64,000 nucleotides of DNA, taken from NCBI RefSeq assembly GCF_037042905.1, contig NC_087250.1, positions 6,698,001-6,762,000 on the forward strand, read 5' to 3'. Below, one piece after another: positions 3,165 to 61,149 of this stretch (the first letter of the stretch is position 1; each line of letters begins with the position of its first letter). The DNA comes from Lytechinus pictus (lineage: Eukaryota). The position numbers and the translations under genes are program-made. The notes under the pieces were generated by a model, which was not told where the DNA came from, made no database searches, and saw nothing but the letters and a program-made list of their open reading frames with translations.

Positions 3165-3227
3165 CAGTGGCGTACCTAGGATTTTCCACAGGGGGGGGGG
3201 CAAAACCGTCCGCCAAAAAATTTGACA

Positions 3228-3261
<34 letters not shown>

Positions 3262-3388
3262 TCTTCAATCACAAATAAATCTTTCAAGCTCGTCAGGGGG
3301 GGGGGCAGGGATACGTCCTTTGCATGGGTTGTGGCTCGTCAGGGGGGGCAGACTGCCCCATCCCCCCCCCCCCGTAGGTACGCTAGTG
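3165..3388. mobile_element. hAT-like MITE
   Basis: CAGTGGCGTACCTA / TAGGTACGCTAGTG termini. 8-bp TSD GTGGTGGG/GTGGTAGG (7/8). Confidence 0.7.
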
Positions 3389-3625
3389 GTGGTAGGAGCT
3401 TACGAATCACTGGCGGATCCAGGGGTCACATCCTGCCCGTGCCCATGCACCCCTATAAGAACAACACCATCAAAATTGTAAATGTAATTATATCCCAAGT
3501 GTGCAAATTACCTATGCAGGGGGCCCGGTATGGAGCGGCATTGCGCCCCCGTCATGGATCATGTAGCCACTGATTTTTTTTTTCTGAATTCATTGCACAA
3601 CTTCCCCTAAGCCATGCACCGTTCA

Positions 3626-4240
3626 AGAACAAGTCCACCCAAACAAAAAGCTGATTGAAAAGAAAGAGAAAAATCAAACAAGCATATAACACTTAAAATT
3701 TCATCAAAATCTGAGCTAAAATAAGAATATTATGACATTTTAAAGTTTCGCTATATTTCACAAAACAGTTATATGCACATCTTAGTTGGCATGCAAATGG
3801 GATGACTTATGACATAACCCAATCACTATTTATTTGTACTTTATTATCATGAAATATGAAATATTCTCATTTCCCCCCCCCCCCCCCCCCATTGTCATGT
3901 GAAATAAAGTTGCATTCCTACCCGAAGATGTATAATTAAATTGTTTTAACATTATCTGGTTCAGACAATATAGGGTCCTAATTTTCAAATCTGTAAAAGC
4001 TGAAATGATATATAATTCAAGCAATAAAAACAAAACAAAAATAATTAGTGAGTGACATCATTGACTCTTATTTTGCATATCATAGTATTGAGCATATGAC
4101 TGTTTTTTTTTAAATCAGCGAAACTTTAAAATGTCATAACTTTCTTATTTTACATCCGATTTTGAGGAAGTTTTCAGCGTTATTTTTGTTTGTTTGATTT
4201 TCTCTATCAAACAACTTTTTTTCTGGGGTGGACTTGACCT
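3626..4240. mobile_element. Kolobok-type MITE
   Basis: AG...CT termini (AGAACAAGTCCACCC / GGGTGGACTTGACCT), flanked on both sides by TTCA (TTAA variant). Long imperfect internal inverted symmetry. Confidence 0.7.
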
Positions 4241-4339
4241 TTCAGGTAGGCATAATCTTGCCCAGCGCACTTGACATGATTTACAGGCCTAGCCTATATT
4301 ATATCGATTTCACAACCGAAGAGTTGTCGAACATATCTA

Positions 4340-7300: not shown

Positions 7301-8385
7301 AAATGTTTTCTAGTTCTTACACTGTTCACAATAAGGAGATGTGATTAGGTGTATTGTTTACGCTGAAGGGAGAGGAATGGGTGCGTATGGAAAAAATATC
7401 CCAAAAGATAGAGAATTGATCTCCATGACATTAACTCACAATTGTGTCCTATTTTTTAAAAACAAGTTTGTATGATACACGTATGCCTCCCACGTAAGGC
7501 GTAAGGAAAAAAGTTTACCTAATGCATCAAATTAGATTGATTGATAAGATTCATTGCGGTAAATGAAATACAATAAATTCGATGTTCCAGCCAGATGACC
7601 AGATTTCACAAAATTAAATACGGGACAATCGACAAAGCACTATGTACCATCGGATCGACCGAGCCAGGCCAAAAAATCAACAAAAAGGCTACACAATGTT
7701 AGACTTGTTAACAAAATATAATTAAGAAAGGGGAAGGGAGGGTGAGCGGAAGAAAGAAAAGAGAAAATAATGAGGAAACAAGAAATGAATTGAGACGAAA
7801 GAAAAAAATAAGGAAAAATTAAAAGGAAAAAAGTTTGAATAAAAGAGAGAACGGTTTCCGTCATTACTTGTAATGAATAAAGAAAGAAAGAATTAAAATA
7901 AAGGAAGGGAAGATGAATAAATGTGTGAAAGAAAAAACATAAGGAGAGAAAAGAGAAAAGTAAGAAAAATGGAGGAAAAGAGAAAGAAATAAAAAGAATT
8001 CCTTCATTATTTGAAAGAAACAAAGACAGAATAAAACATGAAGGAAGAAAGGGAAAGAGGGAATAAGGGAAAACAGAATAAAAAAAAAGAAAAAAATAAC
8101 ATCTACAAAAAAATAATCTACAATAGATTCCGATCACGCTAGTTTAAAAACATAATGGTCTATCACAAGATCACCAAAGTACATGCACATGTAAACATAA
8201 TGCAATGTACGTACCCTAGGGCACCCGAGGATAAGTGCGGGCACGGCCAATATTATATAGCACGCAGGAAACTGCGGGCCCGGGAAAACGCCCTCGTCTG
8301 CTCCCCTTGAATACCCTCGGTTAGACGCAAAAGCCCCCTAGGGTGTTTGCGTGCTCGGGCGTGACGTTTCCTGCGGCCGGCACTG
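4340..8385. mobile_element. Non-autonomous Tc1/mariner-like (TA-flanked) element, 4.0 kb
   Basis: TA at both flanks. TIR CAGTGCCGGCCGC(G/A)GGAAACGTCAC 24/25 match. Subterminal AGGGGAGCRGACGAGGG also inverted. Interior non-coding with purine-rich tracts. Confidence 0.8.
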
Positions 8386-23842: not shown

Positions 23843-25661
23843 TAGTCCAGGATAGGCCCATAGCAAGTGGATTCATTTTTTTTTCATATATACAATATTT
23901 TATGATGGTTTCTTGTCAATTTGAGGGTGCTGATTACGAATCTGAATGATGCCACTCATGTAACCTTTGTCATTTTCCGCACATAGGCTTATGGCCGCCA
24001 AAATATGCAAATTACCCATGACAATCATACAATTGCCAGCACACTGGCTATATATAAAATCAATGTAATGTGTTGCACGAGTAAAATACTTGTTGATAAG
24101 TGACTTTTGTCGAAAATTATATTTTCTTGATATTCAAAATCGACGCCAATACTCTACATTGTACAATTATAATAATAATAATAATAATATATGTGATTTG
24201 TAATGCGCCAAATCCACTCGGCAGAGTGCCCAAGGCGCAGTGAAAGAAGAAAGAAAGAACGAAAGAGAACAGGTACAAATTATAATAGTAATAGATTCAG
24301 GAACAATTAAGAGTAAGAGGCATTGAATAGACGAGTCTTAAGGTAACGTTTAAATGTATCAATGGACGTGCATTCACGGATTGTCAGGGGAAGATCATTC
24401 CATAGAACAGGGCCAGCGTGAGCAAAAGCCCGAACCCCCCATGTCTTAACTGATTTAGGAATAACTAGGGAACCAGAGTTTGATTAACGTAGGGACCTGA
24501 CTGGAGTGTATTTGTATTTGCAAAATTCCCGCAAAACGACTGAGTAGTATTATGTACAGTGTTAATGGGACAAAAAAATTACAAGAGTTATCACTAAAAT
24601 GCATACTATTAGGTTAAATGAGTGGAATACTGACTAAAACATAATTTTTAACAAAATATACTGTTTAATATGTACATGTATGTACGTGATAAATGCTGTA
24701 TTTTGAAATTAAAAATGGCCGCCACAGGTCCTATGTGTATTATGTACAATGCGGATGGAGAAACTATTCTTTACAAGATTAAACCATAAAATATGTGTAA
24801 TTGTGATCTATGAGTAAAATGTTGTCTGAAAACACGTTTATAGCGAACATGTCATATCTTTTGTCATGCATGATATAAATGCTGAATTGTGAAATTCAAA
24901 ATGGCCCCTATAGGCGCTAAAAGAATTATCTACGATGTAAATAGGGACAGATAGTTTTGTAAAAAAAATTGATTTGCTTGTCTATGAAATCCATATAATT
25001 TTGTTAGATGAATAAAGTGTTGTTTGAAAACATGATTTGTATGAAACATAGCGTTTCCTTTGCCATATGTGATGGATACTGTATTTTGACATTCAAACTA
25101 GCCACTACAACCCCTAACTGAATTATGTAACATGCTGTAGGGAAACTAATTTTCACAAGAATGGGCGGAGCCATAAAATACATATAACTGTGATGTATAA
25201 GCAAAATATTACACGATCTATAACTAAATACATCGCATATGGGCAAAGGGCGACCATTCTAAAATTAGACAAATAACTTTTATCACCTAAATGATATATT
25301 TCATTAGAAATCATGTTTTCAGACAATATTTTACTCATACACCACCATTTACTCAAAAAAAGGATAATTCTATTGGAATTATTTGTCCCCATTCAATACC
25401 GTTACGGCCTTTTGCGGCCATTTTGACTTTCAAAATACAGTACTTATCACCAACCTAGCAGAAGAAGGGCAATCTTGTGATTTTCATGGGTAATTTGCAT
25501 ATTTTGGCGGCCATATTGGATTTTGACAATTTGCGGAAAATGCTCTAGGTTACATGAGTGACATCATTCAGATTCCTAATCAGCATCCTCAAATTGATAA
25601 GAAACCATAACAAAATATTATATATATGAAAAAAAGGGTTATGCCTCTTTTACATGGACTA
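23843..25661. mobile_element. Academ-like non-autonomous element
   Basis: TAGTCCA...TGGACTA termini. Long imperfect subterminal inverted repeats (gagggtgctgatt..gaatctgaatgatgccactc). Same family as 43606-48047. TSD not preserved. Confidence 0.65.
24168..24515 (-). mobile_element. L2-clade LINE 3' end nested in the Academ-like element
   Basis: Minus strand KYTPVRSLR*SNSGSLVIPKSVKTWGVRAFAHAGPVLWNDLPLTIRECTSIDTFKRYLKTRLF, followed by a 3' UTR with GCGCCTTG...GCGCATTACAAAT and an (ATT)n tail. Confidence 0.85.
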
Positions 25662-28219: not shown

Positions 28220-28919
28220 TAATAACTTTCTTAATATTTAACGGATTTCCTCCAAACCTTCACCGATATTTTATTTTATTATTTTGAGGGATATTTTTTA
28301 GAGAAGTAGAGGTAGAGAATGACATAGTCTACACCCTCGCTATGTGGTTTTCACTAAATTTATCATTGTATAAAATGTGTTATATTTTATTTCATGTGAA
28401 TAAGTTATGCTAACATTATATTCATGAAGGGCACACTTTTGCTCTAATTCATTAAATAAAGATCCGAGAAGGCAATTTCTTATGAAAATATTCTGTATCG
28501 TATAGCATTCGTAACATATGTAAACTGAAAACAAATCGGTTACCAAATGGAATTGTATATTTTTTTTCTTATTAGGATATTATTTAATTCTTAGTTTTTG
28601 TTCTTTTCATATAAATTGTTGTCCAACAAATATCGTCCGTTACTTTATTTTGGCCATAATTCAATAGCATCGAATTTAAAAGAATGCTCTCAATTATTTG
28701 TTTGTTTACAGTTTTGTCCAGAGATTCAATCTTCGGTATGATTGTTGTTTGCTAATCTTAGCTATATCAGTATATGTATTACTCAATTTGTTAATACCTT
28801 TAGGATTTTCTCCTTTAAGTTGTGAATAATAATTCCGTTTAAAAAACATTTCGTTATTCAGTTGATTTTATATAATTTTATTATCATATACACACGTTTG
28901 TTTTTACTTTCTTATTCAG

Positions 28920-29440
28920 ATTAGTAATTATGAGCCTGGTAATGACATGAATGATGATATGACTACCAGGTTGTGGAACTGTCTGAGATCCTTCAACCTA
29001 CTGACCCATCTAAACATCTCAGACTCATCTCTCAGTTTCCCTCAATCACCCCCTCAACTACTATCCGTCACAGCGCTATCAGCTGAGAGATTGACGTCAC
29101 AATGCTATGAAGGACTGATCTCATCGCTCCCTGGTTTGGTAAAGATCGATATCACCACTGATAATGCAGATAGAGACATATCCCAGATCACTGCTGGTCT
29201 CAGGCGAACAGGAGGACATAAACTCACACGCATTAACTTTCACGCACCGCCATCATTCCAACCAGAGAAGAGTCGTGTATCGAGAGACACCATGAGAGCA
29301 CTGGGTCTGCTGATCAGACAATATACCAAGAACCTGCAGTGGATTGGTTTGTCTGGAGTTATTGGTTTGAAGGAAGAAGATCTTGCTGAATTCCTTGAGT
29401 CGTCGACATCTTTGGCATCATTGGCTCACCTGCATCTAGA
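28920..29440 (+). CDS. Internal exon (LRR module 1) of an LRR protein, probably NLR-type immune receptor
   Basis: Pyrimidine tract + ttcag acceptor before 28920 and GA|gtgagt donor after 29440. 521 nt, phase 0-2. Translates ISNYEPGNDMNDDMTTRLWNCLRSFNLLTHLNISDSSLSF...SLPGLVKIDI...TKNLQWIGLSGV...SLAHLHL with LxxLxL periodicity. Clearly paralogous to the exons at 43041 and 54340. The NLR assignment is recognition of protein style, not a search result. Confidence 0.85.
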
Positions 29441-30292
29441 GTGAGTTTTTTTTTAACCATATGGGCTTATATCTTGCCGATTTCAACTGTCACTGTACGG
29501 AGTGTCAGAAAACAAAGTAGATGTATAAATGGATATTTGCTTCCGTAATAGTATGGATCCTACTAGGATCCATGATGACAGGTAGGCGACTCTGACTTAT
29601 ATATTTTTTTTAATACACACTAAATTGAATTTAGCAGCCAGTCGTATGTCCTCAAAATATATCGATACCTTTATATTTACCGACATCCCTCGACCCTATC
29701 TATATCGAGAGTGACTGTCACGTGGGAGTGACTTTTACCTACTGCTGCTTGACACCAGATAAGGAATACGTAAAACTGATAATTACAGTTATCAAAATAT
29801 TTAATCAAATCTCTTCAATCTCTGTTGTTTTCTTTTGATTGATTAACGATAATACATGAAAATATACATGGATATTGATAGCAGAATATACCTTAACAAT
29901 AATGGTTAAATCGATCCCCTATCATATCTTCTTGCCTGACATGCCCCACTCGGCCCTGGTGGTCGGTCCAGTTCCTGGCCTCCGCAGCTTGCGATGTCGC
30001 TCGATGCATCCACTGCTTTACTTCCACTCGGCCTCCACAGACAGTGTTGCCCCTTGATGAGTAGCCACCAGATAAGAGAGATGTGGCTTTGACAAATTAG
30101 TGGACGAGATTGAGCCCCCAAACTGAATTACTGAAATTACCCTGCTAATATACCCTACCGTTACTAGGACTAACTATAACATTTTATAAAGTAATTCAAA
30201 GTACCTACATCCCTCGACCCTATTCATATCGGGAGTGACAAAAGCAATTTGAAGTAAAGCAATTATAATAATAGTACTACCATTAGTAGCAT

Positions 30293-34734: not shown

Positions 34735-35705
34735 CGGTTAAAAATAATCAGCAGTGCGCTGCCTGCATATAACTGGCGCCAATCAAGAATAATCAGCGCC
34801 ACCTTAATCTAAATCGGCGCCGGACAAGAATAATCAGCGCCATTTGGTTATAAATCGGCGCCAGTCGAGAAAAATCGGCACTGCCAGAGTCTAAACCGGC
34901 GCCGATCAAGGATAATCTGCGCCACCTAAATCTAAATCGGCACCAGATAAAAATAATCGGCGCCATCTGGTTATAAATCGGCGCCGGTACAGAAAAATCG
35001 ACGCTGCCTGAGTTCTTAACCGGCGCCGATCAAGGATAATCAGCGCCACCTAAATCTAAATCGGCACCAGATAAAAATAATCGGCGCCATCTGGTTATAA
35101 ATCGCCGCTGCCAGAGTCTAAACCGGCGCCGATCAAGGATAATCTGCGCCACCTAAATCTAAATCGGCACCAGATAAAAATAATCGGCGCCATCTGGTTA
35201 TAAATCGGCGCCAGTCGAGAAAAATCGGCACTGCCAGAGTCTAAACCGGCGCCGATCAAGGATAATCTGCGCCACCTAAATCTAAATCGGCGCCGGGTAA
35301 GAATAAACGGCGTCATCTGGTTATAAATCGGCGCCGGTAAAGAAAAATCGGCGCTGCCTGAGCTCGTAACCGGCGCCGATCAAGGATAATCGGCGCTGCC
35401 TGAGTCTTAACCGGCGCCGATCAAGAATAATCAGCTCCACCTAAATCTAAATCGGCGCCGGACAAGAATAATCAGCACCACCTGGTTAAAAATCGGCGCC
35501 AGTCAATTATGAATTGCCGCTGCCTGAATCTTACGTGACGTCGGTAAAAATAATCAGCACTACTTGTTCTAAATCGGCGCCGGTCAAGAATAATCAGCGT
35601 CCCCTTGTTCCAATAAATAGGCGCCGGTAGAATAATGAAGAAGGGCCTATTGCCAACCAAATCTAGATCGGCGCCGGTCAAGAATGGTCAGCGGCACCTG
35701 GTTAT
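34735..35705. repeat. GC-rich minisatellite, ~21-bp unit around AATCGGCGCC, with higher-order repeats
   Basis: Dozens of aatc(g/a)gcgcc units. Longer blocks repeat nearly exactly (e.g. 34850-34930 vs 35200-35280). Confidence 0.9.
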
Positions 35706-36128
35706 ACATTTTATTGTTGATTGGTCATAACAAAGCTTATCGCATGCCCTTACAGAGTGGACTCGGGCAGGGCAGTTGCCCACAGAATGACAGATGTCAT
35801 GAAATCTTTAATTATTAAAAAAATCCCAGAACCATACAAAAGCGTAGAGCAAATCCTTTAATTTTGATCTTATTTTCTAATGCTTTCAGTATTGCCAACC
35901 AAATCTAGATCGGCGCCGGTCAAGAATGGTCAGCGGCACCTGGTTATACATTTTATTGTTGATTGGTCATAACAAAGCTTATCGCATGCCCTTACAGAGT
36001 GGACTCGGGCAGGGCAGTTGCCCACAGAATGACAGATGTCATGAAATCTTTAATTATTAAAAAAATCCCAGAACCATACAAAAGCGTAGAGCAAATCCTT
36101 TAATTTTGATCTTATTTTCTAATGCTTT
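35648..36128. repeat. Near-perfect tandem duplication, period 242 bp
   Basis: 35648-35886 matches 35890-36128. Confidence 0.95.
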
Positions 36129-37289: not shown

Positions 37290-38288
37290 CCCTTTTTTAC
37301 TTTCTATATATGTTTTAGAAAGATTATATGTTTAAATTGATGTATATTTCTGCTATAATGAGATATGTTTAAGTGGACTTCAGGGAATGGTCGTACGCAG
37401 CAAGGGGGAAGGGGGGGCACATTCGCGATCTGCTGTTGTGAAAAAAATTGTTTTTTTCCTTAACATTTCATGAAAACTATGAAAAATGTGCAAATGTGAG
37501 ATGTGCACCAAATTTTCGAGTCTTGCCCCCCCCCCCCCCGGATATATTATCTGCGTGTGGTCATGCAAAATGGCATGACTGGAAATCCTACATTTTGAAA
37601 AGAGCGTTTGACAGGGTCAGACTTTACCCCTTTTTCAACATTTTCTTTTATGGCGCCGGTGAAGTGCAAAAATATGTGCGCCGCCCGGCAGTGCGCCCCC
37701 CCCCCTTTCGCCAAAAGCTGGATCCGCCTATGCACAATGCAATTAATAGCAAAATCGAATGACGAGAGCTGTACAGGGGAGGGTGGAATCCCTCTCGCTT
37801 AGCCTGGCGGAAATCATCGGACATCGATGGATAGCGCCACCTCCACACTAAACTCAACCAACCAACAACGCATGGAATCTTGTAAACATCGCTATCGAGT
37901 CTGCCGGGCATAATTCGAGCGTGAATCACGAGTAAATTTAAAGAAAAATATAAATATGTCATGAGTATTGAGTATCTAATCATGTTTTGTAAAAGCAAAC
38001 TGGATATCATATCCATGTATAAGTAATAAAAATGGAATATAACATTAATTTGAATGATTATTGTTGTATTGATCTAGTATCGGAACAGTATACTTGCGAA
38101 ACATAATGGTTATTCAATACATTTTTGCACAGTAGAATTTAGAATTGTCATTTTTGCTGCACTTAGGATTCAATTTAGATCTGGTTTCCAGTGTCGGTAA
38201 TTTTTTTATGTTATTAGAAATAGCCGTTAGAATACTTTCTTTACATATTTAGAAATTGGACTTTGAAACATAACTTATATAGATCATA

Positions 38289-41200
38289 AGTAGTATAAGA
38301 ACGTCTCCAGCGTCATGACGTAATGTTACGTAGCCCTCATGAATATTAATGAGGGTCATGAATATTAATAAGGGTCGTGAATACATAATGAGGGTGTCTT
38401 GGGCGTCATGACGTCATCCGAGCCCTAGCCTTAACCCTAGCCATAACCCTAACCGTAAGAGTACCAGCAACTGTAACCCTACACGAAACCCTAACCCTAC
38501 CCCAAACCCTGAACACGATGGAAGATGATGCTACTGACGTCAGTCAGTGTCATCATGGACGACATCGATAAGGACATCGTTGGATTGCAACAGGGAAGTG
38601 CAATGGAAGGGGAAGGAACACGACGTGACATGAAATGGGTGGGGGTATAATAATATAATAAAATACAAGGGGAGTTCTATGACATCATACTCGATATAGT
38701 CATCCATGACATCGTTGGATTGCGACAGGGGAGTGTAGAACGTGATGGGACATGAAATGGAGGGGTAAAACAACAGGTTAAAAAACAAGGAAACCTCTAT
38801 AAAGGGTTGAGGAAAACCGTCATTCGTCATTATTGCGACGAAAAAGGAGTAACACTCAAAAACTGGGACCGTCTACATACAACATGTGTAATACAACCGC
38901 AAAACGCCGACGATACCGAATGGTGGCAATAATTTCAGGAACAAGTGGAAAAGGCGGATTTGCTCATGGTCATCGAATATCTGGCCATTATCGAGATTTT
39001 CAAAGACATGAACAAATATCCAAAGACATGGGTGGAAGAATTGATCAAAGAAAATCCTCGGATGAAAGTACGGCAATCGTTGGAGTGCTTGGACCCTTAG
39101 AAGTTGGTCAAATTTTAACCCCACGTAGCGAGAGTGATGTGGATGAGACGAGAGCTGATGGACCCGTACCTCATCACAGAGTATGGGTTGTCTATAGCAT
39201 CATAACTTTATTATTTGTTTTATGAATATGAATTATGAAATATGTAAATTCATAACGTGTATGAAACATGGACATGACATCATAATTATACATAAATTAT
39301 GAATAAATTATGATTAAAGCTATCGTGACATCATACCGATGATGTAGTGGTCCCAAACTTTGCTTGGTTTAGAGCCCTTGGTTGTTTGCTCTCGGTATTA
39401 AGCAGCTATAGGCTTGGATTTGATTCTCAATGTTTACCTCGTTGAGTTTCATGCGAATGCATATATGGGCAGTATCGTCGTAGCCATCAATGATCGATTT
39501 TCTGTATGATAGGACTAGTATGGCGAAAAACAATGGGGGAAGTTGTAAAGAGCGGAGGAAAATGACAATTTATTCGTCAGTTTCGTCATTTGGTTATTTT
39601 CATAATTTTGATAATTTTGTCATTTCGTCATTATTTGTTGTTCTGTCATTTGTCAATCGGTCAATTATTCATTTTGTCGTGCTGCCATTTCGTCATTCCA
39701 TCCTTTAGTGGGAATAGGGTGGGAAAGGGGAGGATCGATCGGCAAGGGAGGAGCCCTGAGGGACAAGTATCCGTCTTTTCATCATTGTACAATTCGTCAT
39801 TTTCATGCCATCGTTTTTTAATTTTTTCTCTCGTTTTGTCATTTTGATAATTTGGCCATTCGGTAATTATTCTACCATTTGTCGATCGGTCAATAATTTA
39901 TTTCTCGTTCAGCCATTCGGTTATTTCGCCGATTTATCATTTTCTTCCTTACGTTATACGCTGTTGTTCTGCTTTTTAACAGTTTCCTAAAGAAATTGTT
40001 CATTGAAAATCAAGAAACATATGCATCATTTTTTTTTTCTACTTTGTTTAATCTGTCTATCATCATTGTACGATTCGTCATTTTAATGTCATCCTGTTTG
40101 TGTTATATCCATGCCATCGTTTTAATGTTTTCTCTCGTTTTGTCATTTTGATAATTGTCGATCAGTCAAATGTTCATTTTCTCCTTCTGTCATTCGGTCA
40201 TTTCGTCGTTTTGTCATTTTCTTCCTTACGTTACGTCGTTGTTTTGTTACTAACAGTTTCCAAAAGAAATGGTTTCATTGAAAATCAATAATAATAATTA
40301 ATAAAGATTTCGGGGGTATAAGAACTTAGGCAGCAATATTGTTTTGGTTGAATCGTTGACATGGGTGTCGATCGTGGGGTGGGGGATATATTTCTCCCAA
40401 TAATATCACATTATAATAATTGTTATGAATCATCTGACAAGTATAGGAGGGAGTAGAAGATGAACAATCATTGTGTATACTTACGATGGCCATCTAGTTT
40501 GTTCTCTTATATCTTTCTTGATTTTCAATGAAACTATTTCTTTTGGAAACTGTTAGTAACAAAACAACGACGTAACGTAAGGAAGAAAATGACAAAACGA
40601 CGAAATGACCGAATGACAGAAGGAGAAAATGAACAATTGACTGATCGACAATTATCAAAATTACGAAACGAGAGAAAAAATAAAAACGATGGCATGGAAA
40701 TAACACAAACATGCAGGATGACATTAAAATGACGAAATGTACAGTGATGATAGACAGATTAAACAAAGTAGAAATTTAAAAAAAATTATGCATATGTTTC
40801 TTGATTTTCAACGAACAATTTCTTTAGGAAACTGTTAAAAAGCGGAACAACAGCGTATAACGTAAGGAAGAAAATGATGAATCGGCGAAATAACCGAATG
40901 GCTGAACGAGAAATAAATTATTGACCGATCGACAAATGGTAGAATAATTACCGAATGGCCGAATTATCAAAATGACAAAACGAGAGAAAAAATTAAAAAA
41001 CGATGGCATGAAAATGACGAATTGTACAATGATGAAAAGACGGATACTTGTCCCTCAGGGCTCCTCCCTTGCCGATCGATCCTCCCCTTTCCCACCCTAT
41101 TCCCACTAAAGGATGGAATGACGAAATGGCACCACGAGAAAATGAATAATTGACCGATTGACAAATGACAGAACAACAAGTAATGACGAAATGACAAAAT

Positions 41201-42549
41201 TATCAAAATTATGAAAATAACCAAATGACGAAACTGACGAATAAATTGTCATTTTCCTCCGCTCTTTACAGCTTCCCCCATTGTTTTTCGACATACTAGT
41301 CCTATCATACAGAAAATCGATCATTGATGGCTACGACGATACTGCCCATATATGCATTCGCATGAAACTCAACGAGGTAAACATTGAGAATAAAATCCAA
41401 GCCTATAGCTGCTTAATACCGAGAGCAAACAACCAAGGGCTCTAAACCAAGCAAAGTTTGGGACCACTACATCATCGGTATGACGTCACGATAGCTTTAA
41501 TCATAATTTATTCATAATTTATGTATAATTATGATGTCATGTCCATGTTTCATACACGTTATGAATTTACATATTTCATAATTCATATTCATAAAACAAA
41601 TAATAAAGTTATGATGCTATAGACAACCCATACTCTGTGATGAGGTACGGGTCCATCAGCTCTCGTCTCATCCACATCACTCTCGCTACGTGGGGTTAAA
41701 ATTTGACCAACTTCTAAGGGTCCAAGCACTCCAACGATTGCCGTACTTTCATCCGAGGATTTTCTTTGATCAATTCTTCCACCCATGTCTTTGGATATTT
41801 GTTCATGTCTTTGAAAATCTCGATAATGGCCAGATATTCGATGACCATGAGCAAGTCCGCCTTTTCCACTTGTTCCTGAAATTCTTGCCACCATTCGGTA
41901 TCGTCGGCGTTTTGCAGTTGTATTACACATGTTGTATGTAGACGGTCCCAGTTTTTGAGTGTTACTCCTTTTTCGTCGCAATAATGACGAATGACGGTTT
42001 TCCTCCACCCTTTATAGAGGTTTCCTTGTTTTTCAACATGTTGTTTTACCCCTCCATTTCATGTCCCATCACGTTCTACACTCCCCTTTCGCAATCCAAC
42101 GACCTCATGGATGACTATATCGAGTATGATGTCATAGAACTCCCCTTGTATTTTATTATATTATTATACCCCCACCCATTTCATGTCACGTCGTGTTCCT
42201 TCCCCTTCCATTGCACTTCCCTGTTGCAATCCAACGATGTCCTTATCGATGTCGTCCATGATGACACTGACTGACGTCAGTAGCATCATCTTCCATCGTG
42301 TTCAGGGTTTGGGGTAGGGTTAGGGTTGCTGGTACATTCAGGGTTAGGGTTTCGTGTAGGGTTACAGTTGCTGGTACTCTTACGGTTAGGGTTATGGCTA
42401 GGGTTAAGGCTAGGGCTCGGATGACGTCATGACGCCCAAGACACCCTCATTATGTATTCACGACCCTCATTAATATTCATGACCCTCATTAATATTCATG
42501 AGGGCTACGTAACATTACGTCATGACGCTGGAGACGTTCTTATACTACT
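38289..42549. mobile_element. Non-autonomous Polinton/Maverick-type foldback element
   Basis: Termini AGTAGTATAAGAACG...CGTTCTTATACTACT. 6-bp TSD ATCATA (38283-38288, 42550-42555). Near-identical inverted arms 38289-40288 and 40518-42549 around a 229-bp spacer. The paralogous intron copy near 53736 has a single ATCATA (empty site). Confidence 0.85.
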
Positions 42550-43040
42550 ATCATATCCTGAGATTTTCAGCCTATTCTATGATTGAGAAGCTCGTTTAAA
42601 TAGACACGATAAGATAACGCAGTAATGTTATGTTTCCGTTTAGATTTTTAAAACTTCAAACCACAACCGTTTTGGGTGCACATTCATTAATAAAATATGT
42701 CAATCAAACGGAATAATGAAATGTCATTTGGGGGATTTACCCAAACTAAATATAACCCTTCCATTTTAAAATCTTATTTATAAAAAACTACGTATATATC
42801 ACTTGGTATTTCTCTAAGATTTTATCATTAAAATGTTTTTTCAAGTGTCTGAATAATAAATAAAATAAATCATCGTGGAATTCTGGGATATTCTCGTTTT
42901 TCTGAAATACCTTTATAATTTATTTCACGAAATGCATGAAAGGTGTGAAGAAAAATCAGAACCCAATATTAGTTCATGCATCAATTATGTTTTTGACACG
43001 GTATTTTTATCCAGCTTTTCGAATTTGTATTTTCCTTCAG

Positions 43041-43342
43041 ATAAACAAATGTCATCTGTCTTCTGAGTTAACTGCTAGAACGTGGTCCTGTCTGAGATCC
43101 TTCACATCACTGAACCATCTCACCATCTCAGACTCATTGCTTAGTTTCTCACTATCACCTCCCGAGCTACCGTCCGTCACAGAGCTAATAGCCTGTAAAC
43201 GGACGTCACAATGCTATAAAGGGTTAATCTCATCACTACCTGGGTTGCGATATATTGAATTCCAAGATGCAGCTAGAGATGACTTTGTTGAATTTGTCGA
43301 GTCTTCAATACGTTTGACATCACTGCAACGACTTGTGATAAA
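43041..43342 (+). CDS. Internal exon (LRR module 2, internally shortened)
   Basis: tttccttcag|ATA AAC AAA TGT... and AA|gtgaga. 302 nt, phase 0-2. INKCHLSSELTARTWSCLRSFTSLNHLTISDSLLSF...SLPGLRYIEFQDAARDDFVEFVESSIRLTSLQRLVI. Paralog of the other two large exons. Confidence 0.82.
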
Positions 43343-43605
43343 GTGAGAGTTCATGCTTTTAGCTCCTTATTTGCCAAGGATGTCCATTCTTACAATAGCC
43401 GTATGCAAAATGCTTTTCCTGGTTAGGTGCTTAAAGCGCTACTATATCACCACGCTGGATATAAATTGTAGGCTTATTGTAATATTCTGAACTAATAAAA
43501 ACGTTTTAGGTAATCAGTAATGAGATAATAATACGTGGTAACTTACACTTAGTGCAGTTTCCAAAACAATACTTAATTCCGTTTTCCTGCCTAGCTAAGC
43601 TTACT

Positions 43606-45400
43606 TAGTCCAGGATAGAAGGTGTCTGATCTTTTTTTTTAGATATACAATGTTTTTTGATGGTTTCTTATCAATTCGAGGGTGCTGATTCCGAACCTGA
43701 ATGATGCCACTCGTGTAACCTTGAGCATTTTCGGCAAATTGGCAAAGTCAAATATGGCCTCCAAAATAATCAAATTACCCATGAAAATCATAAAATTGTC
43801 CGCACATTGGCTATAAAGTACATGTTATTGTGCTGCCGGAGTGAAATACTCTCTGAAAAAAGAAAGAATTTTGACAAAATATTCAGTTCCTTGGAAAGGA
43901 AGACCTTCGGGTTATAGTTATTTAGTTAATCTTTTTCCTTTCCCGGCATCCATGTGACTCTCCTATTCCTATTGTTTGTATATGTTGTTTATGTATTGAT
44001 TATGCCGAATAAAATAATAAAAAAATAATAATAATTTAGGCCCCTGTACAATATTAATAGGGAAAATTAATTTTTACGAAAGTGGGCACTGCAATGCAAG
44101 TAATAATGATCTATGAGTAAGGTAATGTTTGAAAACATGATTGCTAAAGATATGTATCATTTCTTATCTCATGTATGTGATAAATCATTGTACTTAAAAT
44201 ATAATTTTCAACGAAATATATTATTCGGGTTTCATATTTGTGTTAAATATTGTATTTTGACTTTCAAATTGGCCGCCAAAGACATTGAATGCATTATGTA
44301 CAATCGATCTGGGAAACCGATTTTCACAGTAGTCAGCACCTTAAAATGCATAATAATTGTGATCTTAGAGTAAAATATTGTATGAAAACATACTTCCTAA
44401 CACGATATATCATTCATTTTGCCAGGGAGGTGATAAATAATGTATTTTTTAAAGTCAAAATGGCCGCTACAGGCCCTGACGGTAGGCCTATGATGTACTA
44501 TGCGAATGGGCACAAATAATTTTAACAGAATTTGTCTTTGTTTGACTAAATGGTGTTGCATGTATGAGAAAAATATTGTCTGAAAATATGATTTCTAACG
44601 AAATAGATCATTTATATTTGAAATATGCTTTTTGTGGAAATTATCTTTCCCCATTCAAATTTTACATATTACGGTAAGGGACTATGGCGGCAATTTTCAA
44701 TTTCAAAATGCAGTATTCGTCACCTTTCGGACACAAGCTTTGATATGTTTCGTTAGAAATCACCATGTTTAGACAATACTTTACACTTACATGCAAATTC
44801 AGCATTTTTAAAGTAAAAATTCTGTCAAAATTATCTGTCCCCTGTAAGAATGTACATAATGCTTTGGGATCCTATGGTAGCCATTTTAAATTTCAAACTA
44901 AGGCATTTATTACCTTCTCGACAAATATAATTATGATGTATTTAGTTAAAAACCATGATCAAGACAATATTTTTCTTATACATTACATAGTTACGTGCAT
45001 ATTTGGTTCTCATTCTTGTGAAAATTTGTTTCCCTATACCCATATTACATAATTTAGTTAGGGCTTGTAGCGGCCATTTTGAAAGTAAAAATACAGTCAT
45101 TATCACCTATATGGGAGAGGAAATGTTATAAACAATGTATGATTAACTAAACAACTCTGTTCAATTTATTAAACTTTAATCGCCTTTTCTATTCATCTGA
45201 TCTATCTATATCGACCCAACATATCAACGATTTTTCTTAACTCTACGAGGTCCAATACATGTATTATTTTGAATTTGTATTTTCTTTACATATATATATA
45301 TATATATATGAAAACCATTTGTAAACCATTTTTCAGCCATTGGCTGCCAAATGTCCAAATATGTATTGCTTTTTGAATAAATAAACGATCAATATATATG

Positions 45401-45431
<31 letters not shown>

Positions 45432-48047
45432 TTCATAAAAAAAAATCATTTGTTTACAGTATTTTCCTCATACAACAGAATTATATGGATTTCTTAGTCA
45501 GGCAAATTCTAATTCTCACAAAAATATTTGTCCCCATTTACATTGTAGCTCTAAGGGCCCATAGAGGCCATTTTGAATTTCACAATACAGCAGTTATCTC
45601 ATGCATGACAAAAAAAATGGTGTCTCGCTAGAAAAAGCATGTTTTCAGACAAAATGTCACTCGTAGATTACAATTACATTCATTTTATTGTTCTTACTCT
45701 TGTGAAAATTAGTTTCTTCATTCCCTTTGTTCACAATACAGGTAGGGCATATAGCAGCCATTTTGAATGTCAAGATACAGCAATATTACCGAAATATATT
45801 GTATATATTGTCAATATTATATATTGTACACTGTGTAAGGCTTTATTATGGCAGCCACTTTGAATATCATAATACAGCATTTATCACATCATATAGTATA
45901 AAAATGACATAGTTTTATAACAATCAGGTTTTCAGACAGTAGTCCACTCGTAGGTCACAATCACATGCAATAATAGTGCTCTTGTTTTAAAATTATTTTC
46001 CCCATTCTTATTCTACATAATAGCGTATACAGGGGCCTATGTCGGCCATTTTGCATATCAGTAGGAGTGGGCTATACATGGGTCAAAAATACTTTTTTTG
46101 TAATTTCAATATGACAACAGTTTTTTTTTATTCCTTGTAATGTATCTCTACATGAAATGACAATATTTTTTGTCTCGGGTCCGAGAAAAAAGAGTGCCGG
46201 GCCAAAATCCAAAATGGCCGCCAAAACCCCCCAAAATCACAGTTTTGGCCACAACTTTTTTATTTGGTGGTCAATTTCTCTGGTTTTGGTGTCTATTAAT
46301 ATGTCTTGGGGGGGAGGCAATTTGTTTTTCCTATAATTAGTACTTTTAAACTATTATTTGTAGAGTTAAAAGGTAATTATACCTAAATTTTCCAATTTTC
46401 AAAGCCTTTTTTCAGCCAAAAAGTAGGTTTTATCATCCTGGGGTTCTGGGATATTAGATGGTACGAGGTCAACAATAGCAAGCAGCTTTATATAGCTATA
46501 TTGCTTTTATTCCTCCACTTTGGGTTTACGGATATTTGTGAAATATATCTTATTAGATAAAAAATGTCAATTATCCATTGGGGCTATACAGTATACATAT
46601 GTAAAATGTACTGTACATACATACTGCACTGCATAAATGCATTGGCCACAATGACAGATAACAAGGCTTGTATAAACTAGTGTCATAGAAATGAGCTCTC
46701 AGGTTTAGAATTAGATGCCTCAGAAATTGAAAATATATGTTTTGTCTCAGAAATTTAGGACATGTTTTGTCAAATATGCTAATTCAGGGGGCGGAGAGGG
46801 GTAATTTACACTGTAGCTATTCTGGGCCCCGTTGCATAAAAATGTACCATTATGTTAACTTAACTTAATGGTAACTTGCATGCAATCCTTTATTCTGATT
46901 GGCTGTTGATCAGCGTTACCATGATACTAGTAGTTACCCGACCTTATAAACATAGGCCAGTTAGACACCAGAACCAGGTTAAAAAAAACCTCCAAATTAA
47001 GAAGATATGGCTCACATGTATGTGATATTTACATGTAAGTGTAATTTACGTTGCTGGTTTCACCATGTACATCAGCTGACAGGGAATCAAATTCACAATC
47101 TAATTCTAAACCTTTGAAGCTTATTTCTATGACACTACAGTTTATATACAGGCCTTGTCATATGCCATGGTGGTCAATGCATGGATATATGCAGTGTAGT
47201 ATGTACAGTGCATTGCAAACCGTATAGCCCTTATGGATAAATGACTTTTTCTTATATTTGATAAGATATATTTCACAAATATCTGTAAAACCTTAAGTGG
47301 AGGAATAAAAGCAATATAGCTACATGAAGCTACTTGCTATTGTTGACCTCGTACCATCTAATATCCCAGAACCCCAGGATGATAAAACCCACTTTTGGGC
47401 TGAAAAAAGGCTACAAAAATGGGAAAATTTAGGTATAATTACCTTTTAACTCTACAAATAATGGTTTAAAAGTACTAATTAAAGGAAAAACAAATTGCCT
47501 GCCCCCAAAAACATATGAATAGACACCAAAACCAGAGAAAATGACAACCAAATAAAAAAGTTTTGGCCAAAACTGTGATTTTGGGGGGTTTTGGCGGCCA
47601 TTTTGGATTTTGGCCCGGCACACTTTTTTCTCGGACCCGAGACAAAAAATATTGTCATTTCATGTTGAGATAAGGTAAAAGGAACACAAAAAAACTGTTC
47701 CCACAGTAAAACCAAAAATCACCCATTTATAGCCCACTCCTAATATCAGTTAAATAATTTTTTTTTTTCAAATATCGTTTTTCCAACGAGTATTTCACTT
47801 CCGCACAACAACTACATGCATTTTATAGTTAATTTGTGGGCAATTTTACGATTTTCATGGGTAATTTGCATATTTTGGCGGCAATATTTGATTTAGCCAA
47901 TTTTCGGAAAATGCTCAAGGTTACCAAAGTGGCATCATTAAGATTCGGAATCAGCACCCTCGAATTGAAAAGAAACCATAAAAAAACATTGTATATCTAA
48001 CAAAAAACAAAGTTCGACCCCTTCTCTATGTGGCCTATCCTGGACTA
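43606..48047. mobile_element. Academ-like non-autonomous element
   Basis: TAGTCCAGGATAG / CTATCCTGGACTA termini. 3-bp TSD ACT. Subterminal inverted repeats. Contains nested element 46062-47742. Confidence 0.8.
46062..47742. mobile_element. Nested long-TIR DNA element (~650-bp imperfect arms)
   Basis: TAGGAGTGGGCTATA / TATAGCCCACTCCTA termini. 7-bp TSD ATATCAG. Arms ~46062-46720 and ~47095-47742. Confidence 0.8.
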
Positions 48048-52999: not shown

Positions 53000-54339
53000 A
53001 TGGCGATGATGAAACTGATGTTGAAGCACAATGAATAACAATAGTCATTGTAATGAGTTGAAATGTCCGTGAAGACGATGTTGATGATGATTAACAGTCA
53101 ATTTCAGCAATCCATGGGTTGAAGAGTGTTCATTAAAACTGGTTGATGATCTCTATGAGAACTGAGAATTCCTCTCTCAAAATTACTGCAAACAGTTCAT
53201 TGATGGCGGGCAAATAATTCCACAGAAGATAAATAATCCAGGTGGAAATAAAGTCTGCTCTGACATAAAGTCTGGCATGATCGAAACTTTAAGTTCTGAT
53301 CTGATATGATATTATCCGATCTGATATGATAATGTCCTTTAAGAAACTGCCAGCTTATATATACAAACTTCAACTATTCTGGAAGTTTATAGTATTCACT
53401 ATATATTAAGAACATTCTTCTTCTTTCTGGAGCAATCAAATTCTAAAACATTCTTGAATGACCTCAGTGAAATTAACAATTGTAAACAAAATAGCTAATT
53501 CTATCGTCCATTTTCCACTGTGGACAGACTCTATTGTTTACATTCTCTATTGTTTGCAAATTCCAGAAATAACCAAGATTATTCAAAGATTACTCATGTC
53601 TAACAAAGCTGTACTATAGAGCCTTCTGGAACATTTTTAATCATTCCATGCTATGAATATCCTTAAAGGGGAAAATAACTAAATAAACTTTACATATTTA
53701 GTAATTGGATATTGGAAAGCAACTTATAATATCATTATACATCATATCCTATAATTTTCAGCCCATCCCATTCTTGAGAATGTATTTTATATAGACAAGA
53801 CAATAATAAACAGGGGTGCATCCGTTTGCATTACAGTTTGATGTAAAATGGGTAAATCTTTTTCAATAAAACAAATTTTCTTCTTGAAACTTCACACCAC
53901 GAGCATTTTGGGGCACATATATTGATAAGATATCGTAATCAATTGGAACAGTGACATTCGATTTTCTTTTTTGGGGGTAGCAAAACAAGAGATAGCCTTG
54001 GGGTTTTTTCAGTAATATATATATATATGGGTGTGTTCGTGTGTGAATATATTTCATATAATTCGGATTTTGTTCAGAATTTCTCCTCTGAAATAATGTT
54101 TCTTTAAGAGTATGAATATTCAATATGAAACATCACCTTTGATTTATTTATTATCGCGGTTTTTTTTTTTTGCGGGGGGGGGGGGTCGGCGGGGGTTGGC
54201 TGAAATACATTTATTTTTTTTTTTACGAAATGCATTAAAAGTGTGAAGAATAAATCTGATCCCAAAATTATTACATGAACCAAATAGGTTTTACACAACA
54301 TAATTGTTATCCATCTTTGCTATTAATATTTTCCTTCAG

Positions 54340-54839
54340 ATAACCGCATGTCGTCTGTCTTCCAAGATGACTTCTAGAATGTGGCCATGTCTTACATCTT
54401 TCAACTCACTGAAGCATCTTACCATCTCAGACTCATCTCTCAGTTTCTCTTCACCTCCTGAGCTACCATCGGTCACAAAACTATCAGCAAAGAGTGTGAC
54501 GTCACATTGCTATGAAGGTCTGATTTCATCGCTCCCTGGTTTGGAAGATATCGATATCATTATGGATGATGCAGAGGGAGACATGACCCATATCACCGCT
54601 GGTCTTCGTCAGACGGGAGGGCAGAATCTCAAACATATATATGTTTATGGTCCGTCGTCACTTTCACCAGAGAGGAGCCGTGTATCGATAGAGACAATGA
54701 GAGGACTGGGTCTGTCCATCAAAGAACATACACAGAACCTGCAGGAGCTCCATCTGCGATGTGTAGATTGTACAAACGAGGATGCCTTAGTTTACCTAAT
54801 GGAGTGCTGCAGACGTGTGAAGACGATGCAATACGTTAG
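54340..54839 (+). CDS. Internal exon (LRR module 3)
   Basis: ttccttcag|ATA ACC GCA TGT... and AG|gtaagt. 500 nt, phase 0-2. ITACRLSSKMTSRMWPCLTSFNSLKHLTISDSSLSF...TQNLQELHLRCVDCTNEDALVYLMECCRRVKTMQYV. Confidence 0.85.
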
Positions 54840-57586
54840 GTAAGTTCTTGCTTATGAAAACATATTTTGTTGATACAATTTAAATATCAATCCCATGCAG
54901 TGTTTCAATTTCTACAGTGTTCATATTACATGTAAACTATTTCCTGTAAATATTCGGATACATTTAGAGAACAAACGGTACCATTCTATTTTAAACAAGG
55001 ATAGTGTCATCGGGTAGGCTACTCTTAGAATTGCCATTTGAAATGTCAAGTCATCAAATATATTTCAGTGCATACAATTTGGTGTTAAATAGCTTTACCC
55101 TCTCATTAAATGTTCCTTTTATGTAATAGCACCAGCATGCAAATTTGAATTTTACTAGTTTAATCATAACTTTTTTATAAGCTCCAGTAGCCTGCTATCA
55201 ATAGTTGTTCATACCTAACTCGCAGTCAGTGTGAAATATTCGATTTGTACAATTACCACCGGAAGCAATTACCCCCCCCCCCCCCCCGAGGACAATAACC
55301 CCCTAGACAAAGGGAGTGCACAGAATCATACGTCGGCCGTACGTTTGAAGTAAGAAGTACTCAAGGCATTCTCGATTATATTGGAATCAAACGAACGCTC
55401 TAAGAAAGCTGTAAAAGTGAGCTCCATCCATTGGCAGCTTGCGCTATGCGCTCGCATTATTTGATTTGCCAAATTATACAACAAACTATTTAATACCCCC
55501 CCCCCCCCTTTATGACATTTTACCAAAAATTTCGTCTCACCATTTGTGCTCGCATTTTTGTTATAGATATATCAACTCACAAATCCTATTAAGGATTACA
55601 AAGTGCTTGAAATATCCAGTTTTCAGGCTTCAGTGTCAACACATTTCACTCACTCATTAGGCCTAATACATTAACTCTAACCCTGCCAGCCCGAATACCC
55701 CTCTACTGCCAGGGATATTCGAGGGAGTCCTAATTTGGCAGAAAATCGAGCAGCGACTGATTTAAAAACGGTCATAATTCTTTACCCGTACGTTGTATAA
55801 TGAAACCTTCTACACATGAAATGATGCATGGTTCATGGGCTTTATGATCGTGTTATTATCTTTCGTATTCGCGTTTGGAAAAATGGAGAAAAGATGTAAT
55901 ATTTTACATCGTTTTTTCAATAAGTAAAACCTAGAAAATTATGATTTCATGAACATTTCAAAGAGTAAATAACCTGAGGAATTGTAAAGATACCAAGAAA
56001 TTAAGAAGATAAAATGAACGTTCAATGTTTACCGTTTAAAATGACGTATCTATGAAATTGAACAAACAGAAATAACGAAAAATAATGCTCTTTTGAATGA
56101 AATACTATTTTGCTATTCAAGTTTTTTCCTCAGAAGTACGAGATAGTATAAATAGATGAGTGGCAAGAAGCCAAAAAGTGGTTTATTTCTTGACTTTAAT
56201 CCCCCCGGCTGGATCAAAGCAAAATCATACATCAAATTAAAGGAAATTTTCTGAATTTTTCGGAATTGGGCATTAAAAATGACGTAATATGTAGCATCAC
56301 CATGGAAGCCAGCCTTGATTAAGCCACGCCCATTTTAAATACTTATTGAATATTTATCGTGAATATTGATTTTTTACTCATAAATTTAAATTATCAGGAA
56401 TGTTTTCTTATTTTTAAAGGATAGTTCCACTATATATTGTAAGAAGAATTACTGAATAACAACTGAATTTATGAATATTTTCTCTGAAATTGTTGCCTAG
56501 CAACATAACTTTCCTTAGCAACCATTTAGCTCCTTAAGTAAACCACTTATTTTTCCATTTCAAACCTAACTTTTAACTTTTTAACTAGGTTAGATTAAAC
56601 CTAATAAGTTACACCAATGAAATTCTATAAAGTATTATTGAAAAATAATAAAAAGAACCGAAAACCCCCACTTTAATTATTGCAAACCTAAAATAAATTT
56701 GATAAGCTCTACTAAACATACCCCTTTCACATCGTACAAATCGCCATATTATTGTTCATTTTGACTACATTGACAGTCACATACTCTATACTATTTTGTG
56801 GTGAAAAAAGTGGATTGAGTTAATAATACCTGATCAATTAACATGCAGTATCTTGTCTTCAATAGAACAACAACAAAATTACCATTTCACCTTACCCATG
56901 GATACCAATTCATTGCCTAGCAACGACTATTTTCCATAGCAACGACTATGATAACACTCTCCTCCCTGGACAAATCTGTGTAAAAATAGTTCATTATGAG
57001 CAATAATACTCACAAAATTATCATATAGATGCCTACAACCTCATTTTCAATAATCATTCAACAAACTGACTATTTTTTAGCTTCCATGGAGACAAATGTG
57101 TTGCCTAGTAACAATATTCCCTAGCAACAGCTATGTTACCACTCGTCATCTCGGTCAAATGTGCTGAGGAAGTTGTGCCTTAGAGTAAACATATTGAGAA
57201 AATTAACATATGATAGTTTGTTAAACAGTATTCAGGAATTTACCATCATCTACTGACACAATTCCATTGCCTAGCAACACTATTTACCTTAGCAACGATG
57301 TATTTTTCCCTTAAACAATCTTGATGAAAATAATCCACTTTTAAGTGTACAGTACCATTTGTAAAGGGATGGTCTAGGCTGTAAATATTTCTATCTAAAT
57401 AGATAGAGTAAAATTCACAAAGCTAAATGCTGAAAATATCATCAAAATCGGATAACAAATAACAAAGTTATTGAATTTTAAAGTTTATCAATATAGTGTG
57501 AAAACCTTTATATCCACATTGTCATGAATATTCATTAGGTGGGCTGATGATGTCACATCCCCACTTTCCTTTTTCTTAGTTTATTA

Positions 57587-59856: not shown

Positions 59857-60325
59857 AAAAATATTTAACATGTTATTTAGCTTGTGAGCTTTTGCTTTTG
59901 AAAGGACATTTACTCCTTAAGAGTAGGAAGTGTAATTTTGTTAAATGTTTTAAGAGCATTGGCATGTCTTACATTTATAATAGAACAAGTGCTTGCAGAT
60001 ATATGATATTTTTGTGCCTCTAACTCATGCATTATTGAATTGATTGATTAAGAGTCATATTGGAGTTTTATATAGATTAGGGCGTGGCCTAAAAAATATT
60101 TAACATGTTATTTAGCTTGTGAGCTTTTGCTTTTGAAAAGACATTTACTCCTTAAGAGTAGGAAGTGTAATTTTGTTAAATGTTTTAAGAGCATTGGCAT
60201 GTCTTACATTTATAATAGAACAAGTGCTTGCAGATATATGATATTTTTGTGCCTCTAACTCATGCATTATTGAATTGATTGATTAAGAGTCATATTGGAG
60301 TTTTATATAGATTAGGGCGTGGCCT
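59857..60325. repeat. Near-perfect tandem duplication, period 235 bp
   Basis: 59857-60090 vs 60092-60325. I see one substitution (gaaagg/gaaaag). Confidence 0.95.
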
Positions 60326-61149
60326 TTAAACTTGTGCGACTGCTAAGTTGATACTTTAATATAGACCCTATGTATTCTTCTAAATATTGGGTGTCTCCTT
60401 TTTTCAGGCGGCCGTTACGTTACATTAAATTACGCCACGTTACAGTGTTTTTCTACCAGATTATTGGTCTTACTACATTACAATATTTCTACAAACAGAT
60501 GTGTACGGCACTTCATATATTCTAAACAATGTACATCTAGCGTTCCATAGACGTCTTCAGTTCGTCGCCCCATATCTACGGAGAACTGTATCAACGTTAA
60601 CATTGACTATTGTGCTGCGGTAGCTCTCGGGGAGCTAGTCCTTCAGGTTCCACTTCAAGATTCTCCAAACCTCCGAAGTTTTAGTGACTGTTTTGAAGAG
60701 ACATTTAGAACACTTTACAGCTTCAACGGTACCCTTATAATATAAAGAACACTCGCGACGTAATATTAATTTTGGGTTAAGAGAGGGAGCTTGTGTTTTT
60801 TTGTAATTTGGCATTTGCCATTATGTGATTTTCTATTGATTTACACTTTGTACAAGGCTCTGTTTTGTAAAGACTTCGCTAATTTTGTTATGAAAGGATT
60901 CAGGATTTTTTAAAAATAAAGTTTATTTAAACTTTATTTGATGGCTGCTCTCTAATTCTTGAGTCATTTGTGAATTGTGGGTGGTCAAGCAACCCGGTAT
61001 TTAGATTTTTAATGAGTCGACACAATTGCCTTTGAACTTAAGTTTTTTTACCTGAATTGTAAAAATCCATTCTTCAAAGTTAATTCGTGACAGTATACTG
61101 CATGATTCTAAACGGTAATATTTGCTCAGTGCCTATCTTCTCGGGTCAC

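Follow-up and report, generated by a model that had tools for sequence, protein, structure and literature searches.

The insertion and its arms

The region analyzed here, referred to below as the window, is a stretch of 64,000 nucleotides of Lytechinus pictus (contig NC_087250.1 of assembly GCF_037042905.1, positions 6,698,001 to 6,762,000), and at 38289-42549 it contains an element of 4,261 bp made of two long inverted arms and a short unpaired middle. This element is quite probably a gene-less, non-autonomous member of a family of long-armed palindromes that use the ends of Polintons (self-synthesizing, virus-like transposons also known as Mavericks or polintoviruses). Its first bases are AGTAGTATAAGAACG and its last bases CGTTCTTATACTACT; it begins with AGTAGT and finishes with ACTACT, showing 5'-AG...CT-3' termini together with terminal inverted repeats (TIRs; AGTAGTATAAG.../...CTTATACTACT). 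Read directly at both borders, a perfect target site duplication (TSD) of 6 bp, ATCATA, flanks the whole element (38283-38288 on the left and 42550-42555 on the right). A paralogous empty site is present at 53688-53803 (+ strand) with 76-82% identity to both flanks: the left flank 38239-38287 aligns with 53688-53735 and the right flank 42550-42612 with 53741-53803, and a three-way alignment displays ATCATA only once at the paralogous site, with no element. Because of the TSD and the empty site, the 4.26-kb element is a single real insertion that entered as one unit. The initial annotation, made from the letters of this DNA alone, had described the same termini, the exact 6-bp TSD, the empty site (near 53736, in a paralogous intron copy) and integration as a unit, and all of them have been confirmed.

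The two arms are nearly, but not completely, identical. BLAST of the element against itself aligns positions 1-2003 with 4261-2227 at 96.8% across 2035 columns, and in a pairwise alignment of the arms there are 33 substitutions in 2003 aligned bases (1.65%; Kimura two-parameter distance 0.0167) and four indel events, in accordance with the ~2.0-kb arms with only scattered differences noted initially. An inverted-repeat scan recovers the pairs 38289-38498/42340-42549 (210 nt, 100%), 38423-40036/40778-42391 (1614 nt, 97%) and 40095-40296/40510-40711 (202 nt, 95%, with 213 nt between). The left arm occupies element positions 1-2003 (38289-40291, + strand) and the right arm positions 2227-4261 (40515-42549, - strand). 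A short middle between them does exist, as had been claimed, although it measures 213-223 bp instead of the 229 bp given at first. No polymerase, integrase or capsid gene was found among the 39 stop-to-stop frames of at least 50 aa listed for the element. The inner arm (39560-40213, + strand) contains ~280-bp sub-repeats rich in the motif GTCATTT; counting both strands, the element has 19 such sites, versus 0.9 expected.

The terminal repeat (38289-38560, with its mirror at 42280-42549) has a structure of its own: a ~20-bp GAGGGTCATGAATATTAAT-like repeat occurs three times, the palindrome TGACGTCA is present twice in perfect form, and degenerate CCCTAA repeats, which are ~24-32 bp longer in the right arm, cover ~90 bp. 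This telomere-like (CCCTAA)n stretch (38423-38514, + strand) matches repeat arrays over query positions 135-226 with 77-80% identity, many of these arrays lying in the first few kb of contigs. Its G-rich strand points 5' to 3' toward the element end, as in a real telomere.

An assembly fold-back artefact, two head-to-head insertions or a foldback family unrelated to Polintons could also be invoked for such a structure, since palindromes are known in long-read assembly and long arms with sub-repeats resemble those of classical foldbacks. However, the 33 sites and four indels at which the arms differ argue against an artefact, the presence of one TSD only, at the outer borders, and of a single empty site argues against two insertions, and seven sister copies elsewhere in the genome (see below) have their own TSDs, with termini identical to those of a Polinton. 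These explanations are taken together to be extremely improbable, as the initial annotation had already judged for the artefact from the arm differences and the TSD.

The Polinton on C3

The genome searches were made in one assembly and scored the best candidates only, so that the counts reported below are lower bounds. A search with a 25-base pattern of the terminus gave exactly 20 ends, arranged in 10 pairs, with zero mismatches, and the pair on C3 bounds a Polinton of 17,229 bp with a TIR of 639/642 bp (98%). Its genes include an integrase with rve and chromo domains, an adenovirus-type protease (Peptidase_C5), an A32-type ATPase (Pox_A32) and a family B DNA polymerase of the protein-primed type (pPolB) of 1,786 aa (L032:1813-7173, - strand), whose frame has a long repetitive N-terminal region ahead of the polymerase domain. 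The last gene, at the pPolB-side end (L032:7563-8174, - strand), encodes a PC4 domain (p15 coactivator, single-stranded DNA binding; E 7.9e-15). An autonomous Polinton sharing the termini, as had been envisaged initially, does exist.

The arms are related to one particular end of this Polinton. Each of the eight long-arm copies matches the integrase-side end (L031) on its two arms, up to ~900-970 and with 85-95% identity, whereas the other end (L032) matches only up to ~570-650. In the left arm of the window copy the match covers element positions 1-896 (38289-39184, + strand; 85.6%), of which only 1-567 also match the other end; the identity is 94-95% for subfamily copies. As a result, ~320 bp (arm ~640-960) that are single-copy in the C3 Polinton, at its integrase-side end, and that take in the beginning of its first gene, are present on both arms. 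The 5' part of this left-end gene (function unassigned) is interrupted by a stop in the left arm (38756-39100, + strand; homologous to L031:2127-2609) and persists as an open remnant of 114 codons in the right arm (41714-42058, - strand); a Pfam search with the gene gave no family. Further inward, each arm has ~100 bp of the Polinton integrase gene in reverse orientation relative to the end (76-81% nucleotide identity to the C3 Polinton), located at 39387-39485 on the - strand (76% to L031:3887-3984) and, as detected by tblastx, at 41314-41415 on the + strand. These fragments, of ~34 codons per arm, are the only coding matches between element and Polinton in tblastx, in agreement with the initial statement that pPolB, integrase and capsid genes are missing. 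Apart from the integrase fragment, neither blastn nor tblastx finds a counterpart of arm ~960-2250 in the C3 Polinton; the part inward of the fragment that lacks a match amounts to ~1.1 kb and includes the ~280-bp sub-repeats. Judged from its sequence, the window element is Polinton-derived, non-autonomous and gene-less. The proposal that homology to the parent would extend past the TIR at one end only is consequently correct for arm ~640-960, where both arms come from the same helper end, and incorrect for ~960-2250; the arm as a whole is not helper sequence.

An element on C2 (L033+L034; C2:42075651-42091606) derives from the C3 Polinton by deletion, with 99% identity; it consists of the left 4.24 kb plus a 343-bp terminal repeat and is interrupted at Polinton position ~2.6 kb by ~11.4 kb of inserted sequence. 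This 16-kb element was considered as a second autonomous parent and discarded, as it has no pPolB match and keeps only the left 4.24 kb and the 343-bp end.

Sister copies and origin of the spacer

A search of the genome with the arm detected paired inverted copies at seven other loci, as well as two longer candidates. The TSDs of the 10 elements are all 6 bp long and all distinct, nine of them perfect and one with a single mismatch; other full foldback copies with different 6-bp TSDs, whose existence the initial annotation had left to be checked, are thus represented by seven sisters, each with its own duplication. The sisters are 5.7-8.6 kb long; their arms span 2.1-3.3 kb and enclose a centre of 1.5-2.3 kb, which in all seven contains a C2H2 zinc-finger frame of 229-246 codons, which is open in two copies (C5 and C2a), has one stop in four and is truncated in the copy on C15.

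The comparison with these sisters explains the structure of the window copy. Element positions 2006-4261 are colinear with a complete arm of the C15 copy (to arm position 2222), and positions 2006-3045 with arm positions 2252-1214 of the C4 copy, while the left arm (1-2003) ends early, at arm position 1997 (C15) or 2031 (C4). Since right arm and spacer together are colinear with a whole sister arm and the left arm is ~220 bp shorter, the so-called spacer (40292-40514, - strand) corresponds to the right arm's innermost ~220 bp, the left partner of which is absent. The window copy is equivalent to the C15 element minus C15 positions 1998-4817 (~2.8 kb), and the junction, at 40291-40294, reads ...GAAAATCAATAA-TA-ATAATTAAT..., with AATAA preceding TA and 2-5 ambiguous bases. 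A single event accounts for the loss of the entire centre together with ~220 bp at the inner end of the left arm. Consequently, the "almost nothing between" the arms that had been noted initially is a secondary loss, given that seven sisters keep a centre of 1.5-2.3 kb. It had also been reasoned that an autonomous parent already possessing 2-kb arms would reduce the element to an ordinary internal deletion product; the sisters do have such arms, but they are not autonomous. The closest full-length sister is the copy on C15 (L038; C15:23154770-23163381), which has an insertion of ~1.57 kb in its right arm (element 6631-8198) and whose zinc-finger frame is reduced to residues 90-229.

Another aspect is the way in which the arms evolve. 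In clustering of four segments, both arms of one copy group together, and not by side, in seven of the eight copies; because the arms pair by copy in spite of a between-copy divergence of up to 15%, they were probably alike at each insertion. The copy on C4 (L041; C4:32527278-32535130) combines segments of different subfamilies. Compared with the window left arm, its left arm is 98-99.7% identical in the inner part and only 86% identical in the outer part, and its last 1,442 bp on the right correspond to the opposite (pPolB-side) Polinton end, with 94% identity. This mosaic structure indicates exchange among co-existing copies and with the helper.

These data also bear on the model first put forward for the window element, according to which an autonomous Polinton underwent a single copy-back at one end that directly gave a 4.26-kb molecule. 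The Polinton-type termini and TSD, and the presence on both arms of sequence found only at the left end (640-960), are what this model predicts, and its claim of a Polinton origin is retained. On the other hand, arm ~960-2250 is absent from the C3 Polinton, and the seven sisters possess these same arms plus a centre, the spacer being arm sequence; a direct origin is therefore very improbable.

The zinc-finger gene and a wider palindromic group

The centre of the sisters is of interest because its gene extends far beyond the window family. In the encoded protein, of ~230 aa, a C2H2 finger is connected by an acidic linker to a conserved helical domain. Pfam recognizes zf-C2H2 alone and below the cut-off (E 0.0005), the Atlas search returned C2H2 clusters only, and the only named homologues are an "uncharacterized protein" of L. 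pictus. In the AlphaFold2 model (mean pLDDT 71.5) the helical C-domain is confident, and Foldseek with this model retrieved nothing at E<=0.001 in PDB or BFVD. Between lineages the ratio of nonsynonymous to synonymous substitution rates (dN/dS) is 0.15-0.27, with dS saturated, and within the window family it is 0.29-0.89, based on too few changes to be informative; between lineages the gene thus appears to evolve under purifying selection. The zinc-finger gene occurs at at least 150 loci (150 scored of 361 candidates), and 102 of these 150 listed matches form 51 inverted pairs less than 3 kb apart, 49 of which are head-to-head. It was also considered as a possible Polinton gene, and this was rejected, as tblastn searches of the C3 Polinton, of the C2 derivative and of the initial 6.2 kb (L057) of a Polinton on C17 were all negative.

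Four types of terminus were examined, namely AGTAGTATAAG (window family), AGAAGATATAGTAGTC (L054), AGAAGATATACTAGTC (L055, of the lineage of L054) and AGTAGTTATGGG (L056), and all of them are associated with 6-bp TSDs and with a reiterated starting trinucleotide (AGTAGT or AGAAGA). L054, L055 and L056 have AG...CT ends, with the TSDs ACCTTC, GATATT and CATGAG, respectively. L054 (C18:24397000-24406000; element 749-8311) is a 7.56-kb palindrome with a zinc-finger gene on each arm, the arms being 3.64 kb long and 100% identical, with a middle of 283 nt. L055 (C17:17458200-17464200) is a single-gene element of 5.67 kb. Both are colinear with 91% identity, and the centre of L055 is found twice in L054, in inverted order, which identifies L054 as a recent inverted duplication. 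L056 (C9:2385500-2394700) is also palindromic; its arms measure at least 2.44 kb and are separated by 175 nt, and 171 candidate termini of its type were counted in the genome.

These terminus types can be connected with other Polintons. A second Polinton lineage is represented on C17 (C17:12796772-12809156) by an element with an rve and chromo integrase, an A32-type ATPase, pPolB matches and a capsid-like frame 44% identical to its C3 counterpart. It is bounded by L056-type ends, although the sequence in common with the L056-type palindromes is restricted to the terminal ~295 bp (93%). Terminal sequence of the L054 type lies ~3 kb from pPolB matches at C2:41.965-41.969 Mb. On these grounds we tentatively propose, with rather less than even confidence, that an undescribed group of Polinton "hitchhikers" exists, whose palindromic members, 4-8 kb in length and spread over 150 or more loci, would carry one conserved C2H2 gene, use the ends of at least three Polinton lineages and have their arms resized by replicative turn-arounds. 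If so, these elements would be natural traces left in an animal genome by protein-primed hairpin replication, and the window copy would be their smallest version, in which only the cis-acting arms are left.

Two other observations concern this group. A cluster of ~45 kb at C17:8136548-8181436 contains nine head-to-head zinc-finger pairs and one unpaired gene, spaced ~4-7 kb apart, with L056-type termini interspersed, and could be composed of nested or tandem palindromic elements. The motif GTCATTT was tried as a binding motif of the whole group and rejected, being enriched in the window family and absent in L054 and L055.

Formation of the window copy

For the family that uses Polinton ends, the scheme proposed is one in which the Polinton supplies the enzymes. 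Its integrase would move the element in trans, and its protein-primed polymerase probably acts in trans as well. Slide-back or jump-back initiation is established in protein-primed replicons, and the reiterated AGTAGT end, like the AGAAGA start of other terminus types, would fit such a start. While a full-length sister is being replicated, the polymerase or a broken nascent strand may turn back (copy-back), so that left arm ~2000-2030 would become joined to inverted right arm ~2220-2250 and the centre would be dropped. A turn-back before the centre would generate the window form and one after the centre would generate forms like L054; a later turn-around point could also explain the relatives whose arms have engulfed the central gene.

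The same junction might have arisen by a plain internal deletion, in which a full-length copy lost ~2.8 kb through end-joining or through processing of a hairpin or cruciform, either before or after insertion. The correspondence with C15 minus positions 1998-4817 is compatible with this, as are the few ambiguous bases, which resemble end-joining, the lack of a second copy with the window junction among the 10 elements and the clear precedent of the C2 derivative of the helper (99% identity). A deletion cannot, however, produce the inverted duplicated centre of L054 relative to L055, nor account for the 51 inverted pairs among the 150 listed zinc-finger matches. The inverted duplications in the group therefore mean that a palindrome-making process has been active which is able to give the window form too. 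Deletion is a serious contender, somewhat short of an even chance. Replicative turn-around is slightly preferred as the origin of the junction, with a probability just above even, because of the pairing of arms by copy, the exchange in the C4 copy, the comparison of L054 with L055 and the 51 inverted gene pairs.

Several points weigh against this reading or parts of it. A plain deletion yields an identical sequence, and 2-5 ambiguous junction bases fit both processes. The window junction is found in none of the others among the 10 elements, so that mobility of the gene-less form itself is hypothetical. The pairing of arms by copy could also be explained by gene conversion after insertion. In addition, ~1.3 kb of each arm has no source in the C3 Polinton by blastn and tblastx; the identity of the window subfamily (terminus ...AAGAACG) to this Polinton is only 85%, and none of the four elements in the assembly with that exact terminus is autonomous. 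Finally, the replication of these elements by pPolB is putative. Whatever its origin, the window copy is today a fossil, with 1.65% divergence between its arms.

Comparison with known systems

In PMC10748475, Polintons are given a length of 13-25 kb, TSDs of 5-8 bp and TIRs of 100-1,500 bp, and PMC3014272 reports a Polinton from a lizard that measures 17,487 bp and has a 6-bp TSD and a 584-bp TIR, together with an "apparent absence of nonautonomous copies." According to PMC5499653, pPolB and a retrovirus-like integrase are definitional for Polintons. The window element resembles them in its AG...CT termini, its 6-bp TSD and the terminal sequence that it shares with the 17.2-kb C3 Polinton, and departs from them in that it has no pPolB, integrase or capsid genes and in that most of its arm sequence is not of Polinton origin. 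Moreover, its arms of 2.0-2.25 kb (up to 3.6 kb in its relatives) exceed the TIR range quoted in PMC10748475.

A second group for comparison is that of the foldback transposons, which PMC3573991 and PMC4079207 characterize by very long inverted arms, internal sub-repeats and a variable middle. The long sub-repeated arms and the variable middle of the window family are reminiscent of Drosophila FB, Galileo and Tetris, whereas its Polinton termini and 6-bp TSD differ from features associated with P- or MULE-type transposases. Classical foldback families such as FB, Galileo and the sea-urchin TU elements have a terminus type of their own and the target duplication of their transposase.

A third group for comparison is that of the hairpin or inverted-dimer deletion derivatives of protein-primed linear replicons, such as the derivative of the kalilo plasmid and the hairpins of yeast killer plasmids; adenovirus incomplete-particle genomes rich in the left end are also said to have been described by Daniell in 1976. 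The likeness lies in one genome end present on both arms, a short unpaired middle and a protein-primed B-family polymerase. Such derivatives are free molecules, observed in cells or particles, whereas the window element is integrated and has sisters at seven other loci; the window family, unlike them, also contains sequence that is not from the helper, and the sisters have a gene of their own.

The protein-primed model of Polinton replication rests on gene content, and to our knowledge this replication has never been observed directly. Arms derived from one Polinton end and renewed together, with gain or loss of the centre via one inverted junction, are what hairpin or copy-back intermediates of this replication should yield, so the family may offer a sequence-level handle on the model. 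It would also imply that Polinton integration can serve small parasites bearing their own gene. In the titles and abstracts found, no palindromic Polinton derivatives are described; Repbase and Dfam lie outside this scope, and prior cataloguing there is possible.

The host gene

Three exon-like frames of the window, 28866-29444, 42906-43346 and 54304-54843, are paralogous modules, and the second of them (+ strand) is located 357 bp downstream of the element, in an immune-type gene of the NLR kind. The homologues of the neighbouring exons are sea-urchin NACHT/NLR-type proteins, and two annotated paralogous proteins hold modules matching the window at 28.9k, 43.0k and 54.3k, with the order kept. 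From this module order, the element likely sits in an intron of an NLR-type gene, 357 bp before the next exon. The initial annotation had placed it in the intron of an LRR gene; the intron is thus likely, while Pfam gives no support to LRR in the neighbouring exons (best E 0.023, below the cut-off). The ~2-kb dsRNA stem suggested by the initial annotation agrees with the sequence: the inner 1,491 nt are predicted to form one hairpin of -1100.7 kcal/mol, and a transcript of the host intron, if made, would give an RNA hairpin of ~2 kb. Such a near-perfect hairpin, 85-95% identical to a Polinton end and its first gene, could, as a matter of speculation, supply double-stranded RNA pathways.

Other repeats in the window

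Next to the element, at 43616-48007, there is another inverted-repeat structure, probably a different transposon, with outer arms at 43632-43861/47778-48007 (230 nt, 86%) and an inner pair at 46079-46527/47288-47736 (449 nt, 90%); a related piece is found at 25467-25652. The window also has tandem arrays at 1383-2107, 34771-35502, 35648-36128 and 59857-60326, with periods of 31, 41, 242 and 235 bp, respectively, and its GC content falls to 0.16 at 1001-2000.

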